Of a DNA stretch of 37,756 nt, positions 5,435 through 31,903 are shown piece after piece; positions within the stretch are counted from its first letter, which is position 1; every line of letters begins with the position of its first letter. The DNA comes from Cyclobacteriaceae bacterium (GTDB taxonomy: Bacteria; Bacteroidota; Bacteroidia; Cytophagales; Cyclobacteriaceae). The stretch is taken from contig JAGTVG010000095.1 of the NCBI GenBank assembly GCA_018224645.1, positions 1 to 37,756 of the forward strand, given 5' to 3'. Position numbers and translations under genes: made by a program. The notes beneath the pieces were generated by a model. That model was not told where the DNA came from and did not search any database. It saw only the letters and a list, made by a program, of their open reading frames with translations.

Positions 5435-5798
5435 AATGAATTCAAAATTAGAAGACAAAAAAGCGAAACTGCAGGAACAATCTGAGAAGATTGAAGATTC
5501 CCTGAGTGAAGAATTTTCCATATTTTCCGATAAAGCCGCTGATCTGGCAGGTAAGATCCTCATCATCGGAGGGGGAGCGTTGTTTTCCTATTTGATCGTA
5601 AAGATGATCCTTGGCAAGGACAAAAAGGTGAAAAAAAATGGGGAGGGAATAAGGGAAAGGGTCATTGTACAGGCCAGTTCTCCCAAATACATATTTTTCA
5701 GGAGTCTTTCGGATAAGGCTGCGCTTGTTTTGCTTGAGCTTGCAAGGGAAATGGTTGTCAGATACCTAAAAGAACTGCCGTCAAAGAATGAAAACTGA
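5427..5798 (+). CDS. Hypothetical single-TM protein
   Basis: 123 aa. It has a charged coiled N-terminus and a central TM (ILIIGGGALFSYLIVKMIL). It overlaps the upstream gene by 8 nt (ATGAATAA) and the downstream gene by 11 nt, suggesting co-translation. Confidence 0.55.
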   Translation: MNKMNSKLEDKKAKLQEQSEKIEDSLSEEFSIFSDKAADLAGKILIIGGGALFSYLIVKMILGKDKKVKKNGEGIRERVIVQASSPKYIFFRSLSDKAALVLLELAREMVVRYLKELPSKNEN

Positions 5799-6555
5799 CC
5801 TTTATTCAGCGTTCATTGGGAAAAAGGAAAAAAATCAGAAATCTATCGCTGTTTTGATCGATCCCGATGAAAACAGGGATCCCGGGAAAATTGAAAATAT
5901 TATCCGGCAGGGGGTGAAGGCAGGGATAGATTATTTTTTTGTTGGTGGAAGTCTTCTGGTCGATCCTGATACTGCCCCGCTTATCCGGGATATCAGGAAA
6001 TTATCCAGTTGTCCGGTCGTTTTATTTCCCGGAAGCAACCTGCATCTGAACTTTGAGGCGGATGCCATATTATTGCTCTCACTGATCTCTGGCCGCAATC
6101 CTGAATTTCTGATCGGTCAGCATGTCACAGTTGCCGCCTCCATCAAAAAAAATGGAATAGAAACCATATCAACCGGATATATTTTGATCGATGGAGGAAA
6201 GCCCACCTCGGTTTCCTACATGAGCTTTACCCATCCGATCCCTCACGACAAACCGGAAATTGTTTCTTCAACGGCCATGGCAGGTGAACTGCTTGGTCTC
6301 AGGATGATCTATCTTGAGGCAGGAAGTGGTGCATTATACCCTGTTCCTGAAGGGATCATCAGGAGTGTGAAAAAGTCGGTGGATGTTCCTGTAATTGTTG
6401 GCGGAGGCATCAATACAACAGAAAAGGCACTCCGTGCCATGCGGGCAGGGGCTGACCTGATTGTCGTGGGAAATCATATCGAAAAAAATCCCGATTTTCT
6501 GATTGAGATTACCGGCATCAAGGAAGAATACAACCAATCCTTAAATATTCATTAG
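5788..6555 (+). CDS. Geranylgeranylglyceryl phosphate synthase family protein (GGGPS / PcrB-type prenyl-glyceryl-phosphate synthase)
   Basis: 255 aa with the family hallmarks of the TIM-barrel PcrB/GGGPS fold: AVLIDPDE, FFVGGS, VVLFPG, YLEAGSGA, VIVGGGI. Confidence 0.85.
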   Translation: MKTDLYSAFIGKKEKNQKSIAVLIDPDENRDPGKIENIIRQGVKAGIDYFFVGGSLLVDPDTAPLIRDIRKLSSCPVVLFPGSNLHLNFEADAILLLSLISGRNPEFLIGQHVTVAASIKKNGIETISTGYILIDGGKPTSVSYMSFTHPIPHDKPEIVSSTAMAGELLGLRMIYLEAGSGALYPVPEGIIRSVKKSVDVPVIVGGGINTTEKALRAMRAGADLIVVGNHIEKNPDFLIEITGIKEEYNQSLNIH

Positions 6556-7461
6556 GGATTCCCTTCTTCTCATTTTTCCGGCCGGGATACCAAACATCAT
6601 TTTAAACCTTCTGCAGAAATAGGCTGTGTCCTTGTATCCAACTTCCTTTCCAATTTCACGGATACTCTTCTTGGAGGTCCGGAGAAGGTTGACAGCCATT
6701 TCCATCCGCTGGTATTCAATATAATCCTGTGGATTGATCCCTGTCAGCATTTTAAAATACTGCCCTACATAATCCTCTGAAACATTGGCGACATTCGACA
6801 ATACCTTGTTTGAAAGATCCCCCTGAAGATTTTCCTTGATAAAGGTGAAAATATCGATCAGCCTGGGATCCTTGAAATAGGTGATATTTGTGGCCAGTTT
6901 TTCCACAAACAATTGATTATCGATAATATACCTCGTAATTTCTACGACAAGATATTCGGTGAGGGCTTTCACTATCCTTTCATGACCTGCTGCTTCCGAT
7001 TCCGATTCCTCGAGTATGATGTATATCAGATCGCTGATCTTTCTACTTTTAATGATGAACGGAGGGATGTCCAGTGAGGCGAAAAAATTCACCGAATCAA
7101 ACACCTTGGCCTCAAAGGTTATGTAGCTGAAATTCTCCTGGCTGGAAGTGGCGATTTCGGCATAATCTATACTTTGCAGAAACGATTCCTTACGGCTGAT
7201 CAGCTTATCCTTGGTGACGGTTGAAGCTTCGACATTACCATATGATATGGAAATGCTTTTCCCTCCGGGAACAAGTAAAATTTCACCCTTCTTAACCTTC
7301 TGTTTATCAGCTCCATAACGTAATTCACCCAGATGGACAATAAATATTGTATTCTCGACATCATAATAATTATCATTCGAAACCGCCTGAATAATTTTTA
7401 TGTTCTTTGATTTATTGTACTTTATTCCTAAAGATTCAATGATTTTATTATAATCTTCCAT
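6541..7461 (-). CDS. AraC-family transcriptional regulator (cupin-like N-domain plus HTH)
   Basis: 306 aa. The C-terminus has the AraC double HTH (..SIREIGKEVGYKDTAYFCRRFKMMFGIPAGKMRR). The N-terminus has a cupin-like GEILLVPGG. The 3' end overlaps the GGGPS gene by 15 nt in convergent orientation. Confidence 0.85.
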   Translation of the reverse strand: MEDYNKIIESLGIKYNKSKNIKIIQAVSNDNYYDVENTIFIVHLGELRYGADKQKVKKGEILLVPGGKSISISYGNVEASTVTKDKLISRKESFLQSIDYAEIATSSQENFSYITFEAKVFDSVNFFASLDIPPFIIKSRKISDLIYIILEESESEAAGHERIVKALTEYLVVEITRYIIDNQLFVEKLATNITYFKDPRLIDIFTFIKENLQGDLSNKVLSNVANVSEDYVGQYFKMLTGINPQDYIEYQRMEMAVNLLRTSKKSIREIGKEVGYKDTAYFCRRFKMMFGIPAGKMRRRESLMNI

Positions 7462-7668
7462 ATCCCTTTATTTATATAACGGAAGCAGAATTGAACTATT
7501 CCATAAAATAATTATACAATATCAGTAAAAAAATTGTTAATAACAAATAATTTATTGTAAAAGTACAATAAAATATGGGAATTGGCGAAAAGAGAATGAT
7601 ATTTTTATTCCGGGAAGGAAAAAAGACTTCGGTTTAGTAAATTGTATTTATTGAAGATGATATCATTT

Positions 7669-8844: not shown

Positions 8845-9537
8845 TTAATCCCTCGAGCCTAAAAATATCATCAGATAATAAAGCAAGGAAACCAGGGCAC
8901 CGATCGCCGCTACCAGATAGGTCATCGCGGCCCATTTGAGTGCATCTTTTGCCATATCATATTCAGATGCATCAACGATATTTCTGTCTCTGACCCATGC
9001 CAGGGCGCGTGAACTTGCATTGAATTCCACAGGCAGTGTAATGAAAGTAAATGCCGTCAGGATGGCGTAACATCCGATGATGAGGAGTAAAACATAATCG
9101 ACAGGGAAACTTGCAAAAAGGAACGCGCCTCCGAAAATACTGGCAAAAACTACAATATTGAGAATCCTTCCGCTTACATTCTGTATAGGGACCAGGGCAC
9201 TCCTCAATTGAAGGGCTGCATAACCCGTTGCATGCTGAACTGCATGGCCGCATTCATGTGCAGCCACAGCTGCAGCAGCTGCGGATCTTCCGTAAAATAC
9301 TTCTTCACTCAGGTTAACTGTTTTATTCGATGGATTATAATGATCCGTCAGTGAACCCTGTACGCTCATTACCTTGACATCATGAATGCCATTGTCCCGC
9401 AGCATAAGTTCTGCTATTTCACCACCACTCAGCCCGCTTTTCAGGCCGATCTTTGAATATTTTTTAAACCTGTTTCTCAGCCGTGCACTCACCGCAAAAC
9501 TTACGATCATTAAAATGATGACAATTAAAATAAACAT
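8845..9537 (-). CDS. Membrane zinc metallopeptidase (Zn_peptidase_2 / YugP-like)
   Basis: 230 aa with an N-terminal TM, an HECGHAVQH zinc motif and two or three C-terminal TM helices, which is the typical layout of this family. Confidence 0.8.
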   Translation of the reverse strand: MFILIVIILMIVSFAVSARLRNRFKKYSKIGLKSGLSGGEIAELMLRDNGIHDVKVMSVQGSLTDHYNPSNKTVNLSEEVFYGRSAAAAAVAAHECGHAVQHATGYAALQLRSALVPIQNVSGRILNIVVFASIFGGAFLFASFPVDYVLLLIIGCYAILTAFTFITLPVEFNASSRALAWVRDRNIVDASEYDMAKDALKWAAMTYLVAAIGALVSLLYYLMIFLGSRD

Positions 9538-9541
9538 ATAT

Positions 9542-10021
9542 TTATGCGTTTTTTATTTTATTAATGATACTGGTGGTGGAAACCCCCACAATCAGGTCCA
9601 AAGTTATTACTTTTCCACCATTCTCCATAACGAAATTTGCTCCGACAATGTTCTTTATTTCATAATCATTTCCTTTAACCAGAATATCTGGTTTAACGGC
9701 ACTGATGAGCTCCAGCGGGGTATCTTCATTGAAAAGAATAACCATATCGACAAATGAAAGCGCGGCCAGCAGTCTGCCCCGGGAAATTTCGTCATTTACA
9801 GGTCGTCCTGCTCCCTTGAGTATCCGGACACTCAGGTCGGTATTCAGCCCGATGATCAGTTTATCCCCTGTATTCCTGGCTTTCTCCAGGTAATCGACGT
9901 GTCCGATATGCAGGATGTCAAAACACCCATTGGTAAAAACCACCTTCGATCCCTGTTCTTTCCAGGAATCAATTACCGGGAGTGCTTCCTCCAGGGGTAA
10001 TATTTTGTTTTTCGTTTCCAT
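9542..10021 (-). CDS. Stand-alone cytidylyltransferase-fold protein, RfaE domain II-like (D-glycero-beta-D-manno-heptose-1-phosphate adenylyltransferase family)
   Basis: 159 aa with VVFTNGCFDILHIGHVDYLEKAR (HxGH nucleotidyltransferase motif) and a length typical of rfaE2-type proteins. Confidence 0.8.
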   Translation of the reverse strand: METKNKILPLEEALPVIDSWKEQGSKVVFTNGCFDILHIGHVDYLEKARNTGDKLIIGLNTDLSVRILKGAGRPVNDEISRGRLLAALSFVDMVILFNEDTPLELISAVKPDILVKGNDYEIKNIVGANFVMENGGKVITLDLIVGVSTTSIINKIKNA

Positions 10022-11036
10022 AGGGATCTTTTTTCAGAAAAAAACTGATCAGAAAGCTGAGTCCGCCAAAAAACATTAATGAGATAAACTGGGATGTATG
10101 AACAAGTGTTGCAAACAGCAATCCGTCTTCCTTACCGATCCCGTAGAGAATAAGTACACCGCTTACGAAGGCATGGTAAGTGCCGATTCCGCTCTGCACC
10201 GGCGCCGTCATGCCCAGTCCTCCAGCCATCAGGATAGAAAGCCCGGCGGCAAGACCAAGATTGGAGGTAGCCGGAAATGAAAATACTATGATGTACGACA
10301 TGGTGTAATATAGCCCCCAGATGATCAGGGTAGATATAAAAAAAGCTGATTTGTTTTCTAATTTCCGGATGCTGTTCAGGCCATTGATCAGTTCATAGGC
10401 AAAAGGTCTCAGTTTTTTATAAAATCCCAGCGTCCGGATAAAAGCCTTGTTCCTGCTGATCAGGTAAATCCCCGTGACAAAGATCAGTGCGACCAATCCC
10501 GCGCCGATCAGGAAATTGCCAAGGTCAAAACTTTTATAGGCTGAATGAAGCTGTTCGTATAAAAAATCCTTCAGGGTGGAAAATTCAATTATAAATGTTG
10601 CCACAATAATGAATAATAAAAGGATCAGATCCAGGAGCCTTTCTGAGATCACACTACCCAATGAGGCAGGCATGGGGATATTGTCCGTTTTTTTTAATAT
10701 CGCACAGCGGGTCACTTCCCCCATCCTGGGCACAAGCAGGTTGGCAAAATACCCGACCATGACGGCGATAAATGCCCGGAAAGAATTCAACCTATATCCC
10801 AGGGGCTTCAGCAGGAGAGTCCAGCGGTAGCCCCGGAAATAATGGCTCACGAGGGACATGGCGATGGATATGTATACATAGGCAAAATTTGCAGCCTTGA
10901 GTTTTGCCCACAGAACCTTCAGGTCGATATCCCTGAAAACATATAACAGCAGGGCAATGGCAAGGATCAGGGTTACAAAGTACCAGAGGATGGATTTAAG
11001 CTTCATGTATGGTTTAATCGATCCTGTTCCTGTCAT
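9969..11036 (-). CDS. UPF0104 / LPG-synthase-TM ('flippase-like') family integral membrane protein
   Basis: 355-aa polytopic ORF (about 8 TM) resembling the UPF0104 family. An alternative ATG at 11006 (MKLKSILWY..) would remove the 23-nt overlap with panD. The 3' end overlaps the rfaE2-like gene by 53 nt. Confidence 0.65.
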
Positions 11037-11361
11037 TCGGAAAGATGATGGTGGGCTTATGAATACCAGCTTCTTCCGGCGTCATTGCGGCATAGGAAAT
11101 GATAATGATGATATCCCCAACCTGGGCTCTCCGGGCAGCCGGGCCATTCAGACAAACCTGACCACTGCCTCTTTCGCCTTTAATCACATACGTTTCAAGA
11201 CGTTCACCATTATTGATATTTACGATTTGAACCTTTTCATTTTCAAAAATAAAAGCAGCATCCATCAGGTCTTCATCTATGGTTATGCTTCCCACATAAT
11301 GAAGTTCAGCATGGGTTATTTTCACCCGGTGGATCTTGGATTTTAATACTTCTATTGTCAT
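11014..11361 (-). CDS. panD: Aspartate 1-decarboxylase
   Basis: 115 aa beginning [24 protein letters not shown]|SITID, with the Gly24-Ser25 self-processing site. Adjacent to panC. Confidence 0.95.
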
Positions 11362-11379
11362 ACGATGACCGCAAAGATA

Positions 11380-12231
11380 CTAATTTAACAATACGTTATC
11401 TATTATCCTTATGTTGTCAATGTAACCGGCAATGCACAGGGCCTGCTGCCCGGAATCCATTTTCCGGTTCAGCAAACTGAAGTCTTCAGTTCCCACCAGG
11501 GCTATGTATTCCAGCCGCAGGGGAAAAAAACCGGATAAATAATCATTGGCGAAGGATATGATACCTTCCACATCCTGGCCATCTTTCAGAAGCTGTTTAC
11601 ATTCCAGCAGGCATTCGTAAAATTTACTGGCTACAGGCCGGTATTCCGGTGGAATCCGCCTGTTGCGGGATGACATGGCCAGACCATCTTCTTCACGTTG
11701 TGTGGGAATGCAGTGCAGGCGTATGTCGTAAGACAGATCATGGATGAGCTGCCGGATCAGATAAAACTGCTGAATGTCCTTCTGGCCGAAATAAGCATTG
11801 TGTGGTTTGACGATATTGAATAATTTGGCGACGATCAGGCCAACGCCTTTGAGATGTCCCGGCCTGTACCGGCCCTCAAGGATATTTTCAATTCCGCCGA
11901 AATTGATGGTGGTTCTGAGCATGGATGGGTCATCATACAATTCATGGTCTTCAGGCAGGTAAACCACCTGACAACCCTCGTGTTCAAGTTTGCCGAGATC
12001 CTCTTCCACTTTCCTCGGATATTTTTTAAGATCTTCCTCATTATTGAACTGGGTGGGGTTAACGAATATGCTGCAGACAGAGATATCATTATCTTTCAGG
12101 GCATTCCTGATCAACGCCATATGCCCTGGATGGAGTGCTCCCATGGTGGGTACAAATCCTATTTTATTTCCTTTAATTCGCTCGTTTTCAAGGAAATAAA
12201 TAAGATCCTTATTCGTTTTAAAAACATGCAT
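11380..12231 (-). CDS. panC: Pantoate--beta-alanine ligase
   Basis: 283 aa with FVPTMGALHPGHMALI (HIGH-type motif), FGQKDIQQ and MSSRN motifs. Confidence 0.95.
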   Translation of the reverse strand: MHVFKTNKDLIYFLENERIKGNKIGFVPTMGALHPGHMALIRNALKDNDISVCSIFVNPTQFNNEEDLKKYPRKVEEDLGKLEHEGCQVVYLPEDHELYDDPSMLRTTINFGGIENILEGRYRPGHLKGVGLIVAKLFNIVKPHNAYFGQKDIQQFYLIRQLIHDLSYDIRLHCIPTQREEDGLAMSSRNRRIPPEYRPVASKFYECLLECKQLLKDGQDVEGIISFANDYLSGFFPLRLEYIALVGTEDFSLLNRKMDSGQQALCIAGYIDNIRIIDNVLLN

Positions 12232-20093: not shown

Positions 20094-21569
20094 TCAATAA
20101 GCTTTGGCAAATAAAACCCTTTGGTTTGAAGGTTTGCCTGTCAGGATACATTTTCCAACTTCTTTTTCAATATCCAGGGGGATCAACCGGATCGTTGCTT
20201 TTGTTTTATCCTTTATCAGCGCCTCGGTTTCTGCGGAACCATCCCAATGTGCGTATACGAATCCTCCTTTGGTGTCCAGTAATTCCCGGAATTCCTCATA
20301 TGTATCGGCTTGAAAGGTATGTTCTTCCCTGAATTTCAATGCTTTAAGATATATCGTCCGATGGATGTCCGGCATCAGGGATTCTATTTTCCCTTCCAGT
20401 TGATCCATATTAATAATTTCCTTTTCCCTCAGATCCCGCCGCACCACTTCAATGGTATCCTGGTCGAGATCCTTCGGGCCAAGGGCCAGGCGGACCGGAA
20501 CGCCTTTCAGTTCATATTCAGCAAATTTCCACCCGGGCTTATATGTATCGCGGTTATCAAAATGCACCGAATATCCCCTCGATTGCAGGGATGTTCTGAT
20601 CTTTACTGCTTTTTCCGTCACCCGGTTGAATTCTTCATCATTTCTGTAAATGGGGATGATCACAATCTGGATCGGGGCCAGGTTAGGCGGCAAAATCAAT
20701 CCATCATCATCGGAATGGGCCATGATCAGGGCTCCAATCAGACGGGTACTTACCCCCCAGGATGTCCCCCAGACGTATTCAAGGTCTCCATCCTTCGTCG
20801 CAAATTTAACGTCGAAAGCTCTGGCAAAATTTTGCCCGAGGAAATGTGAGGTTCCCGCCTGAAGTGCCTTTCCGTCCTGCATAAGTGCTTCGATACAATA
20901 GGTATCCACAGCACCGGCAAATTTTTCGCTTTCCGATTTAATGCCTTTGAGCACCGGAATGGCCATGTGTTTCTCCGCGAATTCGCTGTAAATTCCTAGG
21001 ATCTTCAGTGTTTCATCCATGGCTTCCTTCCGGGTTGCATGCGCAGTATGACCCTCCTGCCACAGGAATTCAGCCGTTCTTAAAAACAGGCGGGTACGCA
21101 TTTCCCATCGAACGACGTTTGCCCATTGATTCAACAGCAGGGGGAGATCACGGTAGGATTGAATCCAGTTTTTGTATGTATTCCAGATCAGGGTTTCGGA
21201 TGTAGGCCGGATGATCAGCTCTTCCTCCAGTTTTGCATCGGGATCGACAATTACATTTTTCCCGGATGCGTCATTTTTGAGCCTGTAATGGGTTACCACG
21301 GCGCATTCCTTGGCAAAACCCTCAACATGCGCCGCCTCCCGGCTCATATATGATTTGGGGATAAACAGGGGGAAATACGCATTCGAATGACCGGTTTCCT
21401 TAAACATGCGATCCAGCGTGGCCTGCATTTTTTCCCAGATGGAGTATCCATACGGTTTTATAACCATACAACCCCGGACGGCACTGTTTTCTGCCAGATC
21501 AGCTCTTTTGACCAGTTCATTATACCACTGTGAATAATCTTCCGATCTTTTTGGCAACCCTTTTCCCAT
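20094..21569 (-). CDS. proS: Proline--tRNA ligase (archaeal/eukaryote-like type)
   Basis: 491 aa. [27 protein letters not shown].. and the C-terminal ..FAKAY are typical of the type found in Bacteroidota. Confidence 0.95.
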
Positions 21570-21736
21570 AATCTGTGTCTATATTATTGGTATGGATTTT
21601 GCTTTAATTTATACTGTATGTGTGAAATTACAAATATTGAGAAAATAGAACGGAAATTTGATCAAAAATTGTAATTTGTCGTTAATTAAAAATGATTGTA
21701 TATTTATATCTGGTATCATTGAAAAGGGGTTAAATT

Positions 21737-23128
21737 ATGAAAGCATATAGAACATTGAAAATTTTGACTGTCTCAATTCTGGGATCAATCATGTTACTTT
21801 CTAATAGCACGAATGCACAGGAAGAATATGATGATATGTATTTTACACCCAGGGACAGGAAGGAAGTGAAGACGGAATCAGTTTATGCCCCCAATAATAA
21901 GGATAAAGCAGAAATTGAAGAGAACAGGGATGTCATCAATCCGTCAAGCAGCACACAGCTGTACGGCAATGCTCAGGAAAATTATTCCTCCAAGAATGTC
22001 AACCCGGAATATATTGAAAGATATAAAAGTAATTCCAAGGATTCCGCTTCCCGTGAACCTTTAGCGGACGGGGATTCCTATTACATTGAGAATTACGACC
22101 GTTCCGATTTCAAGGAAGAAAATGCCAGGAATCAATCCTATTCCCAATATGGATATCCGGGTTCCTACCCTGGTTCCAATTACGGATATAATGATCCTTT
22201 CTATTCAGGATATAATTCTTTCTATTCAGGATATAATTCTTTCCATTCAGGATATAACTATTATGGACGTTCGTTTTACGATCCATTCTGGAATCCTTAT
22301 TATGGGCCCGGATGGGGATTCACTCCCGGATTCAGCATGAGTCTATCTTTTGGCAGCGGTTGGGGGTATAACCCATGGTACGCACCTTACGGTGGTTATA
22401 TGGGATATTCCAGGCCATGGTACAGCAGTTATTATTACAGTCCCTGGGCTTATGATCCCTGGTATGGACCGTACTCGAGGTGGGGATTAGCCTATTATCC
22501 GGGATATTATTCCAATCGTTATTATTATGTCGGCACAGGCAATGAAAATATCAGTCCCTATAACCGAAGGGTATCCAGAGGCGCGGATAACTATATCGTC
22601 ACGAATAATGCCGCTCCCAACCGCCGGACTGCTACCGTTAACCAGCAGAAAGTGACGGACGGGGAAAATATAAATAGCCGTGCACGAACGGAAAGGGATT
22701 ATTCAAGATCGCAGAATGAATATTATGCGCGTTCACGTGCGAGGTATGACAATACCACAAGTACGAACAATTCTAACATCAGCAGCAGCAGATCCGGGAA
22801 CACGGTTGGTACAACCAGTACCCCGAGAGTCAGAACATCCCGGAATGATGTAGAATATTCACGTCCGACTTACAGGAATAATACCGGGTCCAGATCAGGG
22901 ACAAGTACGTACAACAGAAGCACGGACAGGTCCTCCTGGTCAAACAGCGGTTATCAGCGGAGCAGGTCTGACAATAATAGCTATTCATCGCCAAGCAGAT
23001 CAAACAGTAGCTATTCCAACAGATCCTATAACTCAGGTTCATCCTCTGGATATTCAGGAGGATCTTCTGCACCATCCAGGAGCAGCGGATCATCCGAAAG
23101 CAATTCCAGGAGTGGTGGAAGACGTTAA
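21737..23128 (+). CDS. Secreted low-complexity protein with an acidic N-region, a Tyr/Trp/Gly/Pro/Ser-rich core and a Ser/Arg/Asn/Thr-rich basic tail
   Basis: 463 aa with a signal peptide (MKAYRTLKILTVSILGSIMLLSNSTNA|QEE). By my count residues ~134-265 contain ~35 Tyr and 8 Trp. Residues ~266-463 are S/R/N/T-rich and end SRSGGRR. No recognisable family. Confidence 0.6.
   Translation: MKAYRTLKILTVSILGSIMLLSNSTNAQEEYDDMYFTPRDRKEVKTESVYAPNNKDKAEIEENRDVINPSSSTQLYGNAQENYSSKNVNPEYIERYKSNSKDSASREPLADGDSYYIENYDRSDFKEENARNQSYSQYGYPGSYPGSNYGYNDPFYSGYNSFYSGYNSFHSGYNYYGRSFYDPFWNPYYGPGWGFTPGFSMSLSFGSGWGYNPWYAPYGGYMGYSRPWYSSYYYSPWAYDPWYGPYSRWGLAYYPGYYSNRYYYVGTGNENISPYNRRVSRGADNYIVTNNAAPNRRTATVNQQKVTDGENINSRARTERDYSRSQNEYYARSRARYDNTTSTNNSNISSSRSGNTVGTTSTPRVRTSRNDVEYSRPTYRNNTGSRSGTSTYNRSTDRSSWSNSGYQRSRSDNNSYSSPSRSNSSYSNRSYNSGSSSGYSGGSSAPSRSSGSSESNSRSGGRR
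22199..22261 (+). repeat. In-frame 21-bp tandem repeat x3 inside the low-complexity gene
   Basis: TTCTATTCAGGATATAATTCT occurs identically at 22199-22219 and 22220-22240. A third copy at 22241-22261 has 3 mismatches. The copies encode FYSGYNS FYSGYNS FHSGYNY. Confidence 0.9.
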
Positions 23129-23175
23129 TGAACATCAATTAACAGCAGCTGTACCTCCTTAAAAAGGTTGACACA

Positions 23176-24714
23176 ATGAAAACGATCAGGAAGCTTATTT
23201 TAATAAGCACAGGAATAATATTGGTCATTATTCACGCAAATGCACAAATTTTTCCAAGTGAACTGGCCTTGACTTTCAGCCGTACCTATCAGGGGGGAAG
23301 TGCAAGGATACTTGGGCTGGGCGGGGTAAATACATCCCTTGGCGGGGATATTACCTCAGTTTCTACTAATCCTGCAGGATTGGGATTTTATAACCGGTCC
23401 GAAATAAGTTTAACCCCTGTGATCAACTTCAATACGAATACGAGTTCCTATCTTGGGTCCTCAGGCAATACATCCCTGACCCGGTTTAATATGGGTAACC
23501 TGGGCGTGGTGGTTAACAATACAAAATCCGACCAGGTCCCCGGCGGCTGGAAAGGAGGCAGTTTCGGATTTTCATTTAACAGGATTAATGATTTCAACAA
23601 TGAAATTTTCTATTCAGGAACAAATGTTGAAAATGACTATATCGATTATCTGTTGAATTTTGCAGATGCTAACGATGCTGAACTCGGTGATTTTTACACG
23701 CTGGATATGGGGTATTATACTTTCCTGCTCAATGATTTCAGCATCGATCAGGATACAGGAGACACACTGGCCATGTGGGATTCCTTTGTTGAATTCCCTA
23801 CGGAAGATTCTCCAGTCAGGCAGAGTGAACGCATCATTACTTCAGGATCCCAGAATAAATGGGACCTCTCTTATGGAGGCAATTTTAACGACCGGTTTTA
23901 TTTTGGTTTGGGCCTGGGTATCGTCACTGTAAGTTATGAAAATGAAAAATATTATTCGGAACAGCGTTATCCCGAGAGCATTTTAAATAATTATACCTTA
24001 TACGAACGTCAGATCGTTGATGGTGTCGGAGTAAATGCGAACCTGGGCATCATCGTAAGGCCTATCAATACCCTTACCGTCGGCATCAATTATACCACAC
24101 CTACCGCATACAGCTTTACAGATGAATATGAGACTTCAATGCATACGGTCTGGAATGCCAGTGCCGATGAATTTTATGGTGATGATCCGAATTTTGAAGG
24201 CGATCACCTGGAAGAAACATTTCTGGATCCCCTTATCTATACGATCAGTACGCCCATGCGCCTCAATGCCGGGATAAGTTATTTTTTCAATAAAAGCGGA
24301 TTTATTTCCGGGGATATTGAATGGGTGGATTATTCCAGGGCAAAGGTCAGGTCGAATGATGTTGATTTCAGCGTGGATAACCAGGAAATTTCAGGAATGT
24401 ACCGGTCTGTGATCAATTACCGGCTGGGAGGAGAATACAGGATGGGCATATTTCGGATCAGGGCAGGGTTCAATTACCAGTCAGATCCAAGGGCTGGACA
24501 ATCAGACATGTTGCTTGCGGTACAAACCTATTCTGCCGGGATCGGTCTCAGGAAAAAATCTTTTTATACTGATTTTGCTTATCTGTATTCCACCACCGAG
24601 GGTACACGGGCACCTTACATCATCGATCCTGCCCAGGAAATTGGACCAACCCCGGTGGCGGATATAAACTATGCCCAGAACAGGCTGGTATTCACTGTTG
24701 GTTTCATGTTCTAG
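23176..24714 (+). CDS. Outer-membrane beta-barrel protein, FadL/OmpP1- or PorV-like
   Basis: 512 aa with a signal peptide (..IIHANA|QIF). The N-terminal motif GGSARILGLGGVNTSLGGDITSVSTNPAGLGF is typical of FadL/PorV-type barrels. It has alternating beta-strand patterns and a C-terminal aromatic ..RLVFTVGFMF. Confidence 0.7.
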   Translation: MKTIRKLILISTGIILVIIHANAQIFPSELALTFSRTYQGGSARILGLGGVNTSLGGDITSVSTNPAGLGFYNRSEISLTPVINFNTNTSSYLGSSGNTSLTRFNMGNLGVVVNNTKSDQVPGGWKGGSFGFSFNRINDFNNEIFYSGTNVENDYIDYLLNFADANDAELGDFYTLDMGYYTFLLNDFSIDQDTGDTLAMWDSFVEFPTEDSPVRQSERIITSGSQNKWDLSYGGNFNDRFYFGLGLGIVTVSYENEKYYSEQRYPESILNNYTLYERQIVDGVGVNANLGIIVRPINTLTVGINYTTPTAYSFTDEYETSMHTVWNASADEFYGDDPNFEGDHLEETFLDPLIYTISTPMRLNAGISYFFNKSGFISGDIEWVDYSRAKVRSNDVDFSVDNQEISGMYRSVINYRLGGEYRMGIFRIRAGFNYQSDPRAGQSDMLLAVQTYSAGIGLRKKSFYTDFAYLYSTTEGTRAPYIIDPAQEIGPTPVADINYAQNRLVFTVGFMF

Positions 24715-25216
24715 CCCGGACAGCCTGAACGATTTGATTTTCCAGATCCTTTTCAAATGGAAGGGTGAATTGAGCTTTTGAATAATATGGCAATCTCTCC
24801 TTCAATTTTTCTTTCAGCCCGTCCTGCAGATTTTCAAGTCCGATCTTTTTTAAGAGAGGCCGTTTGTTAATTCCCTTCAGACTCAGCCGTTCAATAAGGA
24901 AAACAATGTCCGTTTCGATATAGAAGGTTAGTCCATTGGTATTCATAAAATCCATATTGTCAAAATAACAGGGAGCCCCTCCTCCCGTTGCCATAATGAA
25001 ATTCTCATGATCCGACGAAATGGACTTTAACAGTTCAGATTCGATTGCGCGGAAATATTCTTCACCCTCTTCTTCAAAAATAACATTGATGGATTTCCGG
25101 ACATGGTTCACGATCTCTGTATCCAGGTCGATAAATTCCATGCCTAATTGTTCAGAAGCTTTCCGGCCAAAGGTCGATTTCCCACAACCTGGCATACCAA
25201 TCAGAAATAATTTCAT
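24704..25216 (-). CDS. aroK: Shikimate kinase
   Basis: 170 aa with MKLFLIGMPGCGKSTFGR (Walker A) and the ..GGGAP.. motif. The 3' end overlaps the OMP gene by 11 nt in convergent orientation. Confidence 0.9.
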   Translation of the reverse strand: MKLFLIGMPGCGKSTFGRKASEQLGMEFIDLDTEIVNHVRKSINVIFEEEGEEYFRAIESELLKSISSDHENFIMATGGGAPCYFDNMDFMNTNGLTFYIETDIVFLIERLSLKGINKRPLLKKIGLENLQDGLKEKLKERLPYYSKAQFTLPFEKDLENQIVQAVRART

Positions 25217-29724: not shown

Positions 29725-30354
29725 TCAGATCAGACTTTTAATTTCAAAGGCATAATAAATCAACCTGAGCCCGAAAAGGATCAAAACAATGCCGACACCC
29801 CTGTTCATGATCCTCATAAAATGCGGCGTGATGATCATCCTCAGTCTGGTGGCCATATAGGATTTGACAATATCCATGGTAAGCACCATGCCAATCACTC
29901 CGATATAGAACAGGGATGCCTGATCGAAATTATATTCCATTTCGATGGTTACAAGTCCTGCTACACCAAGCCAGAATATCCATAAAAAAGGATTCAGGGA
30001 ATTCAGCATGAATCCCTTTAATATTTTTCTTAAATAGGAATTCGAATTCATGGCATCCATGTTGAGGCCTTTTTTCGGGATGGGTTTAAGAATTGAATGA
30101 AGGCCAAATCCGATCATGATCAGCGCCCCCGCCATACCAAGGAAAAATTTCAGCTGGATGTTTTCAGTTAATTTCGATACCCCTGAAAACGTAAGGAATA
30201 TGTACAATGAATCACTCATTGAAACACCCAGTGCCATGAATGCGCCCGCTTTAAATCCTTTTTCAATGGATGTCTGTATCAATGCAAAAAATACCGGGCC
30301 TATGATAAAGGAAAGGATAATCCCGAAGATCAGACCTTTCCAGAGTTCAATCAT
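29725..30354 (-). CDS. LysE/RhtB-family amino-acid (or small-molecule) exporter
   Basis: 209 aa, 6 TM. The N-terminal G.I.GPV.....Q-like pattern (GIILSFIIGPVFFALIQTSIEKG) is typical of the LysE superfamily. Its start overlaps the GH3 stop codon region by 8 nt (ATGATTGA). Confidence 0.75.
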   Translation of the reverse strand: MIELWKGLIFGIILSFIIGPVFFALIQTSIEKGFKAGAFMALGVSMSDSLYIFLTFSGVSKLTENIQLKFFLGMAGALIMIGFGLHSILKPIPKKGLNMDAMNSNSYLRKILKGFMLNSLNPFLWIFWLGVAGLVTIEMEYNFDQASLFYIGVIGMVLTMDIVKSYMATRLRMIITPHFMRIMNRGVGIVLILFGLRLIYYAFEIKSLI

Positions 30355-31903
30355 GTTTTAATTTTATAGTTGTTAGAAAATTCTCCCATGCTTCCTTTTT
30401 TTCTCCTTTCAGCACTCTCGGGAATTTATTCTGACCTCCTTCCTTTCCCGCCGATCGCAGGAAATCATAAAAAACAGCATTGGGAAGCAAGGTAACGAAG
30501 ATTTCCCTCAGGGCATGCTGCCGTTCCGTACGGTAATCATCGTTAAGGATTTTCAGATGGTGATCAAGCAGTTTCCTTACCTGGCCTGAGGATATTTCCT
30601 GTTCCACGCCGACATACCACCGGTGAGCGAACAGGTTCTCATACCTTTCACCGATCACTGTAAATTCTTTCACGCCCAGCTTCAGCTCATCATCGATCAG
30701 CAGGATTGCCTTGTTCATGTTGTCCAAAGAAAGGTGTTCCCCGCATAACGACAGAAAATGCCTGGTCCGACCGGTGATGATAATTTCGGATAGGTCCCGG
30801 TTTACCAGTTGAATGGTATCTCCGATCAGATACCTCCAGGCCCCTGCAGTGGTCGAGATCAGTGGCGCATAATCCCTGTTCAGATCTATTTCATCGATCA
30901 GCAGCGATTCCGGATTGATTGTCATTTTTCCATCCCCGTCAAAGTTTTTGGAGTTGAACGGAACGAATTCAAAAAATATCCCATTGTTCAGGACCAGTTT
31001 CATGCCATCCGCATCCGGCCTGTTCTGGTATGCCAGGAATCCTTCCGATGCAAGATAGGTTTCAATATAGATCAGAGGTTTTCCCAGAAGCTTCTGAAAA
31101 GTGCTTTTATAGGGCTCGAAAGCCACTCCACCGTGAACGAAGATCGAGAAGTCAGGCCAGATCTCATGGATATGGCTGATACCGTAATGGTCAATGATCT
31201 TTTCCAGCAGTATCTGCACCCAGGCAGGAACGCCGGCAATTACTCCAATATTCCATTTATCTGCTTTTCGGGTGATTTCATCAAGTTTCATGCCCCAGTC
31301 CATGTTCCTGGCAATTTTTTGTCCTGGTTTATAAAAGCGTTGAAACCAGAAGGGTATATGTTTGGTGGTAATACCACTCAGATCTCCTTCGAAAAATGTG
31401 CCGTTATAGTTCAAACTGGTGCTTCCACCCAGCAATAATACACCGGTTGTGAACAATTCATCCGGGAGTGAATATTTTGAAAGGGTGACCAGCTGCCATA
31501 CGCTCGTGCGCCTGATTGCTTTGATCTGTTCCTTGGTGATTGGGATGTATTTTGAGGATGTACCGGAAGTTCCTGAGCTGAGTGCAAAAAATTTTATTCT
31601 GCCGGGCCAGCAGATATTCTTTTCACCATTTTTCGACCTGGTCCACCATTGTTCATACATTTCATCATAGGAAAAGGCCGGTACATTCTGCTTGAAAGAC
31701 CTGAAGAACTGATAGAAATCCTTTCCTTTAAAATCAGATAATACGGATTTAAAATGATGTTTCCTGCCAAATTCTGTATCACTGGCGGTAATCAGTAATT
31801 TCCGGAGTTCGTGCTTTTGAAGTTCAGCAGGATTGGAATATTGTTGCTCAAGGCTTTTGCTAAAAATGATTCCTTTCATGATGAGATTACCAAGGATCGC
31901 CAT
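30347..31903 (-). CDS. Bacterial GH3-family protein (acyl-acid amido synthetase / adenylate-forming fold)
   Basis: 518 aa. The N-terminus (MAILGNLIMKGIIFSK...ELQKHELRKLLITASDTEFGRKH), the SSGTSGTSSKYIP adenylation-type P-loop and the length match the 'GH3 auxin-responsive promoter' family common in Bacteroidota. Confidence 0.75.
   Translation of the reverse strand: MAILGNLIMKGIIFSKSLEQQYSNPAELQKHELRKLLITASDTEFGRKHHFKSVLSDFKGKDFYQFFRSFKQNVPAFSYDEMYEQWWTRSKNGEKNICWPGRIKFFALSSGTSGTSSKYIPITKEQIKAIRRTSVWQLVTLSKYSLPDELFTTGVLLLGGSTSLNYNGTFFEGDLSGITTKHIPFWFQRFYKPGQKIARNMDWGMKLDEITRKADKWNIGVIAGVPAWVQILLEKIIDHYGISHIHEIWPDFSIFVHGGVAFEPYKSTFQKLLGKPLIYIETYLASEGFLAYQNRPDADGMKLVLNNGIFFEFVPFNSKNFDGDGKMTINPESLLIDEIDLNRDYAPLISTTAGAWRYLIGDTIQLVNRDLSEIIITGRTRHFLSLCGEHLSLDNMNKAILLIDDELKLGVKEFTVIGERYENLFAHRWYVGVEQEISSGQVRKLLDHHLKILNDDYRTERQHALREIFVTLLPNAVFYDFLRSAGKEGGQNKFPRVLKGEKKEAWENFLTTIKLKHD

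Follow-up and report, generated by a model that had tools for sequence, protein, structure and literature searches.

A family of disordered exported proteins encoded beside a FadL-superfamily outer-membrane barrel in Cytophagales

What use does a bacterium have for an exported protein that appears to lack any fold and is encoded immediately upstream of an outer-membrane barrel? The question is raised by two adjacent forward-strand genes, ORF1 (463 amino acids, aa) and ORF2 (512 aa), in a 37,756-nucleotide stretch of DNA from a Cyclobacteriaceae bacterium (GenBank assembly GCA_018224645.1, contig JAGTVG010000095.1; this whole stretch is referred to here as the window). An earlier note on this DNA had read ORF1 as an exported low-complexity protein, ORF2 as a FadL/PorV-like barrel, and the two together as a secreted substrate and its dedicated channel; our analysis reproduces the coordinates, strands, 47-nt spacing and flanking genes that it gave for the pair, the flanks being proS (20094-21569) and aroK (24704-25216), both on the reverse strand. 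Our findings indicate that ORF1 is a genuine gene whose product belongs to no described family, and that ORF2 encodes a FadL-superfamily barrel which accompanies it in every uncut locus that we examined. With regard to function, we tentatively prefer, at a confidence that stays short of even, the view that the ORF1 protein is associated with the outer membrane, probably on its periplasmic side, as the partner of a barrel that serves as a FadL-type channel or as a dock, and is not a secreted cargo.

The ORF1 protein of the window contains no Cys and is built from three compositional blocks, as had been described. The first, residues 29-133, is acidic (net charge -9). The second, residues 134-265, holds exactly the 35 Tyr and 8 Trp in 132 aa that had been counted before, together with 21 Gly, 20 Ser, 14 Pro, 8 Asn and 8 Phe, and just seven charged residues. 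The remainder, residues 266-463, is dominated by Ser (49), Arg (29) and Asn (27), carries a net charge of +17 and ends in SRSGGRR. Tyr makes up 4.1% of the residues in the other 30 ORFs of the window; measured against that background the binomial probability of 35 Tyr in 132 residues is 9e-19, and the richest 132-aa stretch in those ORFs holds 16. The summed Wimley-White interfacial energy of the aromatic block is -37 kcal/mol (orthologue median -26), compared with +52 and +56 for its two flanks and a background minimum of -21 among all 120-aa windows of the other ORFs, which include membrane proteins. This composition is a property of the family: Tyr, Phe and Trp account for 21-41% of the best 120-aa window in all orthologues, with a median of 7% charged residues, and the Algoriphagus-type orthologues carry Phe, Met and Gly in place of much of the Tyr. 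The last 150 residues of the orthologues contain 20-52% Ser (median 34%) and 11-20% Arg, their net charge ranges from +9 to +28, and 55 of the 79 orthologues end in ..RGN.

Prediction of the ORF1 structure by AlphaFold2 (AF2), using a 22-sequence alignment, gave a mean pLDDT of 41 and a pTM of 0.16, indicating disorder throughout; the sole confident element is the signal helix (residues 3-27), and the model contains no strands and no beta-solenoid. Pfam and NCBIfam return no match to ORF1 at E <= 1, which together with the AF2 result supports the earlier reading of ORF1 as a true low-complexity protein that is exported and has no folded domain. Conservation is instead concentrated in about a dozen short islands. 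They are EYDD[ML]YF..DRK, ENYSSKNVNPEYIxRY and YY.E.Y, then YDPFW and PGFSMSL.FG.GWGYNPW in the aromatic block, and finally Y..R..RG, RD[FY]S..QN[ED]YY, SRPSY, PSRSS and a C-terminal GRGN or GRR, which appear in the tail of the window protein as YNRRVSRGA, RDYSRSQNEYY, SRPTY, APSRSS and C-terminal GRR/GRGN. Residues D32, Y35, F36 and D40 (motif QEEYDDMYFTPRDRK) are invariant in the ORF1 alignment, as are S84, N89, P90, Y92 and Y96; 80% or more of 80 orthologues share the residues of motif ENYSSKNVNPEYIERYK. ORF1 contains none of the long imperfect repeats seen in CsgA or FapC. Its sole repeat, three copies of a 7-aa unit private to the lineage, is encoded by a 21-bp tandem repeat (2.9 copies, 97% matches) that specifies (S)FYSGYN three times; the repeat is not found in the aligned homologues and so looks like a recent expansion within the Tyr-rich block.

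A sequence of such low complexity, lacking any Pfam or NCBIfam match and assigned a different start in the public gene call, might be taken for a spurious reading frame in biased DNA. The evidence from homologues is decisive on this point. ORF1 has 282 homologues in a large protein collection, a pattern scan in which each GTDB species was represented by a single genome recovers a relative in 279 species, and a profile run against 1.84 billion cluster representatives matches 1068 clusters (50% identity) with E <= 1e-3, of which 491 reach E <= 1e-10; the best 150 of the 1068 clusters span 129-560 aa and include no fusion to another domain. The frame is intact in every uncut locus (335-505 aa), with conserved motifs and signal peptides. 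Across nine pairs of close species, dN/dS (Nei-Gojobori) lies between 0.03 and 0.16 for ORF1 and between 0.04 and 0.10 for the barrel gene. Calculated for the three blocks separately, it is 0.02-0.22 (0.04-0.19 for the aromatic block and 0.04-0.22 for the cationic tail), and the low-complexity parts are thus under purifying selection as well. The intact frames and the dN/dS values refute the spurious-frame explanation, to which we assign a negligible probability. The public call for ORF1 (445 aa) begins at Met19 and thereby removes the signal peptide (window positions 21737-21790); the N-termini of the homologues establish 21737 as the true start, and localisation predictions run automatically on the public call would be wrong.

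The named sources of the family are all Cytophagales. Within the Cyclobacteriaceae it is carried by Algoriphagus, Echinicola, Rhodonellum, Cecembia, Shivajiella, Fontibacter and Lunatimonas, and other carriers are found among the Roseivirgaceae and Flammeovirgaceae and in Fulvivirga, Catalinimonas and Porifericola. Some metagenome-assembled genomes (MAGs) labelled Planctomycetota, Limnohabitans or Spirosoma fluviale (loci L018, L070, L021, L049 and L066) contain an Algoriphagus-type locus with full Cyclobacteriaceae synteny and are probably mis-binned or mislabelled. A shorter subfamily of 330-400 aa (P0342, P0359, P0360, P0368, P0370 and P0373) has the variant motifs ENDDMYF and NPTDSYSARNVNPEY; three of its members whose contigs were examined (L086-L088, 6001-7131) are 335-376 aa long, lie in the proS/aroK context and end 14-21 nt before the barrel gene. 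In public databases the ORF1 orthologues are named "hypothetical protein" or, in UniRef, "Vitellogenin II" (P0115 from Echinicola jeungdonensis and P0491 from Algoriphagus ornithinivorans), the latter probably an artefact of poly-Ser similarity. The barrel appears as a long-chain fatty acid transporter, an aromatic hydrocarbon degradation membrane protein or a hypothetical protein. Our literature search found no description of the pair.

Both ORF1 and ORF2 carry export signals, as read from their sequences. That of ORF1 has a basic n-region (MKAYRTLK), a hydrophobic core and a predicted signal peptidase I site between TNA and Q28, and its N-terminus is conserved in homologues; the site in ORF2 lies between ANA and Q24. 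Both predicted mature proteins therefore begin with Gln, which is usual for signal peptidase I substrates in Bacteroidota. Each ORF1 orthologue that we examined has either a signal peptidase I site or a lipobox signal. In the 24-26 of 79 unique orthologues with a signal peptidase I site, the mature protein starts Q-(E/D)-(E)-Y-D-D, so that the motif EYDD[ML]YF..DRK begins at residue +1 or +2, and in the 53-55 with a lipobox Cys the same motif follows a spacer of 10-13 residues. The earlier statement that ORF1 lacks a lipobox consequently holds for the lineage of the window and fails for the family, which alternates between forms with and without a lipid anchor while retaining the N-terminal motif.

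The direction in which such a protein would face is suggested by the signals that it lacks. Surface-exposed lipoproteins of Bacteroidota are recognised by at least two acidic residues in the six positions after the lipidated Cys (PMC12578637), and none of the approximately 53 lipoprotein forms of ORF1 shows this signal; their sequence runs C[ST][ST][NS][KQ].., with 0-1 acidic residues. We rejected the window protein as a surface-exposed lipoprotein on the same grounds and on its lack of Cys. No C-terminal sorting domain of the T9SS (type IX secretion system), whether of type A or B, was detected in ORF1 with Pfam and NCBIfam at E <= 1, as the earlier note had also concluded, and the C-terminus is a disordered Ser/Arg tail; ORF1 was accordingly rejected as T9SS cargo. 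Since the lipoprotein forms have no export signal, a T9SS domain is undetected and, as described below, the barrel is plugged, we infer that the ORF1 protein is located at the periplasmic face of the outer membrane.

By sequence model, fold and NPA motif, the product of ORF2 is a FadL-superfamily barrel. It matches Pfam PF03349 (Toluene_X/FadL; E 1.8e-10, 40.4 bits where the cut-off is 29.7), the match being confined to residues 237-459; it contains the motifs GGSARILGLGG and TNPAGLGF and ends in FTVGFMF. Its AF2 model is confident (pLDDT 87.8, pTM 0.83) and, in our reading of the DSSP assignment, comprises an N-terminal helical plug (approximately residues 27-71), 14 strands and a long extracellular loop 2 (approximately residues 140-213) with two helices. 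Foldseek searches of the PDB return FadL of Pseudomonas aeruginosa and Escherichia coli, TodX, TbuX and CymD (E 1e-15 to 1e-12, with 3dwo among the best) and, in the same E range, BamG of Bacteroides thetaiotaomicron, Porphyromonas gingivalis and Flavobacterium johnsoniae; the top matches have a probability of 1.00, with TM-scores by target of 0.6-0.7 (0.65-0.69 for BamG). PorV chains match much worse (E 1.5e-6 and 6e-5, TM 0.42-0.46), and the fold is therefore FadL/BamG-like and not PorV-like. In an alignment of 36 barrel sequences (487-546 aa in the family), N65, P66, A67, G68, L69 and G70 are invariant, as is Q24, and the plug residues G41, R44, G56-D58 and N65-G70 are invariant or nearly so. 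Conservation peaks in strand 9 (mean 0.73) and in the hatch (0.71) and is lowest in extracellular loops 3, 4 and 7. A plugged FadL-type channel fits these data, since few parts of the protein are as well conserved as the hatch and the NPA motif within it.

The barrel shares with FadL, TodX and TbuX the 14 strands, the N-terminal hatch and the invariant NPA, though it is about 90 aa longer than these transporters, has a large helical loop 2 and is only 12-13% identical to them. It also differs in having 41 residues between the mature N-terminus and NPA, nine more than the 32 of E. coli FadL, and in being preceded by a gene for a disordered protein in every locus examined. Alignment of the barrel profile to E. 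coli FadL by hhalign covers the NPA region alone (aligned to FadL N33-P-A, probability 1%), and neither the profile nor the single sequence matches any PDB chain, even at E <= 10. E. coli FadL likewise fails to match BamG, so that dissimilarity in sequence does not by itself discriminate within this superfamily.

FadL-like barrels in Bacteroidota have lately proved to have other functions. BamG, an essential subunit of BAM (the machinery for beta-barrel assembly), and PorV, which shuttles secretion cargo, dock proteins rather than conduct them; the N-terminal tail of BamH sits in a groove of BamG, and BamG2 and BamH2 are encoded in one operon (PMC12611786, PMC12578637). PorV resembles ORF2 as a Bacteroidota FadL-superfamily barrel, with weak C-terminal similarity of ORF2 to the NCBIfam model PorV_fam. 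We nevertheless rejected ORF2 as PorV or PorQ: it scores 39.7 bits against a PorV_fam cut-off of 90 and 14.9 against 250 for T9SS_OM_PorV, its structural match is the poor one given above, and its partner has no detected T9SS domain. The earlier label "FadL/PorV-like" is thus borne out in its first half and not in its second.

The BamG systems offer a closer parallel, as they too combine a FadL-fold barrel with a partner envelope protein, and BamG matches ORF2 structurally as well as FadL does. This raises the prospect that the barrel is a BamG-like paralogue and that the ORF1 protein is a lineage-specific accessory of outer-membrane biogenesis, either a Tyr/Gly-rich holdase or a BamP-like subunit reaching into barrels. 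The nine extra residues before NPA recall the N-terminal extension of approximately 10-12 residues, threading the lateral opening, by which BamG is defined (PMC12578637). The BamG2-BamH2 operon would be a precedent for the gene pair, BamP is itself lineage-restricted and partly extended, and extracellular loop 3 of BamA has the same composition as the aromatic block of ORF1. Searches with B. thetaiotaomicron BamG (BtBamG) by BLASTP, however, find one to three matches in nearly every free-living Bacteroidota genome, and in Algoriphagus, Echinicola, Belliella and Cyclobacterium these end at subject residues 406-435 (PMC12578637, Supplementary Table 3), as taken from hits in which the query reaches its own C-terminus. 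The Cyclobacteriaceae orthologues of BamG are therefore approximately 410-435 aa long, and they are encoded elsewhere in these genomes. The pair, with a barrel of 503 aa, is present in Algoriphagus sp. NBT04N3 (complete genome, 4,797,669 bp), whose sole BtBamG match ends at residue 427 and so is not this barrel. On this basis ORF2 was rejected as a BamG orthologue. Nor does ORF1 resemble BamH, a carbohydrate-binding-module-like surface lipoprotein: it is fully disordered with no folded domain, it has no surface-export signal, and in the lineage of the window it is not a lipoprotein. We regard a role in the BAM machinery as quite improbable.

What, then, holds the two genes together? The pairing was assessed in 80 GTDB loci, five further contigs recovered from ORF1 or the barrel and the three short-subfamily contigs, and in all uncut loci the order is FloA-NfeD-ProS on the reverse strand, ORF1 and the barrel gene on the forward strand, and AroK-MauE on the reverse strand. 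The gap between ORF1 and the barrel gene ranges from 0 to 283 nt (median 75 in the 80 loci), is as short as 14-48 nt in several lineages, and never contains a gene. The earlier view of the pair as a self-contained unit is thereby upheld; homologues exist, they lie beside proS, and the frame-breaking indels that would have spoken for a spurious ORF were not seen. Several lineages have acquired inserts on the aroK side of the barrel gene (a gene of 916 aa, fragments of alpha-amylase, and a further stretch of about 1.4 kb; L007-L010 and L014 at about 9250-12000, L084 at 5860-7506, and L060), and no insert lies inside the pair. The 3-kb downstream insert was rejected as a part of the system, as it encodes an unrelated 916-aa protein, which by its sequence looks like a glycoside hydrolase. 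A context other than proS/aroK was sought through distant ORF1 homologues (the short subfamily) and distant barrel matches, and none was found. Upstream of ORF1, a match to the Bacteroidota-type promoter consensus (TTTG, 20 nt, TATATTTA; a consensus match only) ends 30 nt before the start codon. The element TAnnTTTG precedes the ORF1-family gene in 39 of 80 loci and is present in the gap to the barrel gene in 3 of 80, and a sequence scan of the 47-nt gap in the window finds no match to a promoter or a terminator. The two genes are co-oriented and probably co-transcribed, and in Cyclobacteriaceae-type Cytophagales the pair belongs to the core genome. In three MAG contigs genes of the locus are broken: the barrel gene is split into 173 + 386 aa in L003 (7427-9065) and truncated in L071 (7428-8513), and proS lies in three pieces in L087 (4358-5831); these breaks may be assembly frameshifts rather than pseudogenes.

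These observations can be brought together in a model in which the ORF1 protein would stay in the envelope at the outer membrane, facing the periplasm. In approximately two thirds of the orthologues examined a lipid would anchor it there. In the signal peptidase I lineages, the window included, the N-terminal motif would instead dock the protein to the barrel. The motif is kept at the very N-terminus after the lipid has been lost and something must hold the protein, which suggests that the motif is a docking site; the barrel is the obvious candidate for the other side of that contact, by analogy with the BamH tail in the groove of BamG. The aromatic block would rest on the membrane interface beside the channel, and the cationic tail would extend into the periplasm toward peptidoglycan or anionic lipids, or toward lipopolysaccharide. 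The barrel itself would be either a lateral-diffusion channel of the FadL type or, like BamG and PorV, a platform for docking. Candidate roles for such a module, in which physical contact between the two proteins is presumed, include dealing with lipophilic cargo that has left through the FadL wall, tethering or spacing of the outer membrane, and an accessory function in outer-membrane biogenesis.

We acknowledge that several points weigh against this model. The rule for surface export was derived in Bacteroidia and Flavobacteriia and may fail in Cytophagales, and a cationic tail with an aromatic block would equally suit binding to lipopolysaccharide or to an extracellular surface. Adjacency is weak evidence of coupling because the whole neighbourhood is syntenic, with FloA, NfeD, ProS, AroK, MauE, DUF1599, folP and cdaA conserved in every locus. 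A mirror-tree comparison of ORF1 with the barrel, taken as the partial correlation of their distance matrices controlled for neighbouring genes, gave -0.02, below most control pairs, and our literature search found no expression or proteomic data on the pair. Conserved synteny from FloA to cdaA and the lack of a specific co-evolution signal are also what would be expected if the two genes were independent neighbours, the barrel being an ordinary FadL importer of hydrophobic compounds, as its public annotation as a long-chain fatty acid transporter states and as the retention of the hatch and NPA found in transporting FadLs would allow, and the ORF1 protein an unrelated periplasmic or outer-membrane protein, such as a tether or spacer between the outer membrane and peptidoglycan. 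This explanation accounts less readily for a pair that is never split though insertions occur directly downstream, for the short gaps of several lineages and a gap with no promoter motif, and for signal peptidase I forms whose retained N-terminal motif implies a site for docking to a protein. We consider it somewhat unlikely, though a serious contender.

The model proposed in the earlier note, in which the ORF1 protein is exported by or through the barrel to form a surface adhesive, matrix, condensate or amyloid-like coat, draws on the conserved order of a putative substrate gene followed by a barrel gene, on an adhesive-like and FUS-like composition, and on a cationic tail that could bind anionic lipopolysaccharide. 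The Tyr/Gly/Asn-rich loop of BamA, which is exposed at the surface, shows in addition that such sequences occur outside the cell. The gene logic of a substrate encoded beside its barrel is shared with curli (CsgA/CsgG), Fap (FapC/FapF) and Slam/type 11 systems, and the likeness to these may extend no further. Neither CsgG nor FapF is among the Foldseek matches of the barrel, which keeps a conserved plug, and ORF1 has neither amyloid-type repeats nor a beta-solenoid; it was rejected as an amyloid subunit of the CsgA or FapC type, as judged from its sequence and model only. Conservation of the plug and of NPA points to a FadL-type lumen that is closed, no protein-conducting member of the FadL family is reported in PMC12611786 or PMC12578637, where BamG and PorV dock proteins, and the lipoprotein orthologues of ORF1 lack a surface-export signal. 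Our analysis thus yields no positive support for a substrate with a dedicated secretion channel or for an amyloid or matrix, and secretion of ORF1 through the barrel seems to us unlikely.

A further possibility follows from the resemblance of ORF1 to FUS-type proteins, which the earlier note had pointed out and which stands as a matter of composition and block order only: an uncharged Tyr/Gly/Ser/Asn block is followed by an Arg/Ser/Gly-rich basic tail, and the composition is of the prion-like kind. The differences are that ORF1 lies outside the cytoplasm, has no RNA-binding domain, includes Trp, Phe and Pro, and carries conserved short motifs. The pair might be an envelope counterpart of FUS- or FG-type proteins, with ORF1 covering the outer membrane as a condensate or an interfacial layer whose function is coupled to that of a lateral-gate channel of the FadL type. 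It could take the form of a periplasmic hydrophobic phase that receives or delivers lipophilic cargo crossing the channel wall, or of a surface adhesive or matrix with barrel-assisted release. We hold this to be doubtful; if true, it would represent a kind of outer-membrane system that has not previously been described. A natural point of comparison is extracellular loop 3 of Bacteroidota BamA, a disordered, Gly/Asn-rich segment of 38 residues of which 13 are Tyr (PMC12578637). It is, like the aromatic block, a Tyr/Gly/Asn-rich disordered envelope segment, a likeness of composition only, and unlike ORF1 it is a loop within BamA and not a separate protein. By analogy the two may share a physical role.

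The features of the locus are collected in Table 1. The 3' end of the barrel gene overlaps that of the convergent aroK by 11 nt (24704-24714), with no terminator-like site between them. The window as a whole looks like ordinary chromosome, and an Rfam scan of it returned no matches. Its other products include a PcrB-family (geranylgeranylglyceryl-phosphate-synthase-like) protein at 5788-6555, a protein matching the lysylphosphatidylglycerol-synthase transmembrane region at 9969-11036, and a GH3-family (acyl-acid amido synthetase-like) protein at 30347-31903, of a family better known from plants.

Table 1. Features of the ORF1-ORF2 locus, in window coordinates.
Feature	Position	Strand	Basis
Candidate Bacteroidota-type promoter: TTTG, 20 nt, TATATTTA	21675-21706	+	sequence scan; consensus match only (TAnnTTTG)
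ORF1, exported disordered three-block protein, 463 aa	21737-23128	+	ORF, homologues, dN/dS, AF2
ORF1 signal peptide, residues 1-27, signal peptidase I site TNA/Q28	21737-21817	+	predicted, read from sequence
ORF1 acidic-aromatic motif QEEYDDMYFTPRDRK, mature N-terminus	21818-21862	+	conservation
ORF1 conserved motif ENYSSKNVNPEYIERYK	21977-22027	+	conservation
ORF1 uncharged Tyr/Trp/Phe/Gly/Pro block, residues 134-265	22136-22531	+	counts
ORF1 in-frame 21-bp tandem repeat	22197-22257	+	Tandem Repeats Finder
Anchors in ORF1 aromatic block: YDPFW and PGFSMSLSFGSGWGYNPW	22277-22381	+	conservation
ORF1 cationic Ser/Arg/Asn/Thr tail, residues 266-463	22532-23125	+	composition, conservation
RDYSRSQNEYY island in ORF1 tail	22694-22726	+	motif conservation
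Intergenic gap ORF1-ORF2, 47 nt	23129-23175	+	no promoter or terminator match
ORF2, divergent FadL-superfamily 14-stranded outer-membrane barrel, 512 aa	23176-24714	+	Pfam, AF2, Foldseek
ORF2 signal peptide, residues 1-23, site ANA/Q24	23176-23244	+	predicted, read from sequence
ORF2 N-terminal hatch/plug, residues 24-75, with GGSARILGLGG	23245-23400	+	conservation
ORF2 NPA motif, N65-A67	23368-23376	+	conservation, hhalign
ORF2 strands 1-14, loop 2, C-terminal beta-signal ending in F	23401-24711	+	DSSP of AF2 model

The combination of a FadL-like barrel with a partner protein is a theme already known in Bacteroidota, and what is new here is the undescribed family to which the partner belongs. 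Current annotation hides the pair under the names "hypothetical" or "Vitellogenin II" and "long-chain fatty acid transporter". Envelope proteins that lack order along their entire length, and in which strong purifying selection nonetheless acts on each block, are rare and little understood, and a third, lineage-specific module of barrel and partner would extend the theme, set by BamG and PorV, of FadL-like barrels that do more than import fatty acids. In the Cytophagales that carry it, the pair could inform by what route hydrophobic compounds exit the outer membrane once FadL channels have released them laterally, what tethers the outer membrane of bacteria without Braun's lipoprotein, and what role Tyr/Gly-rich disordered segments such as loop 3 of BamA play at the Bacteroidota surface.

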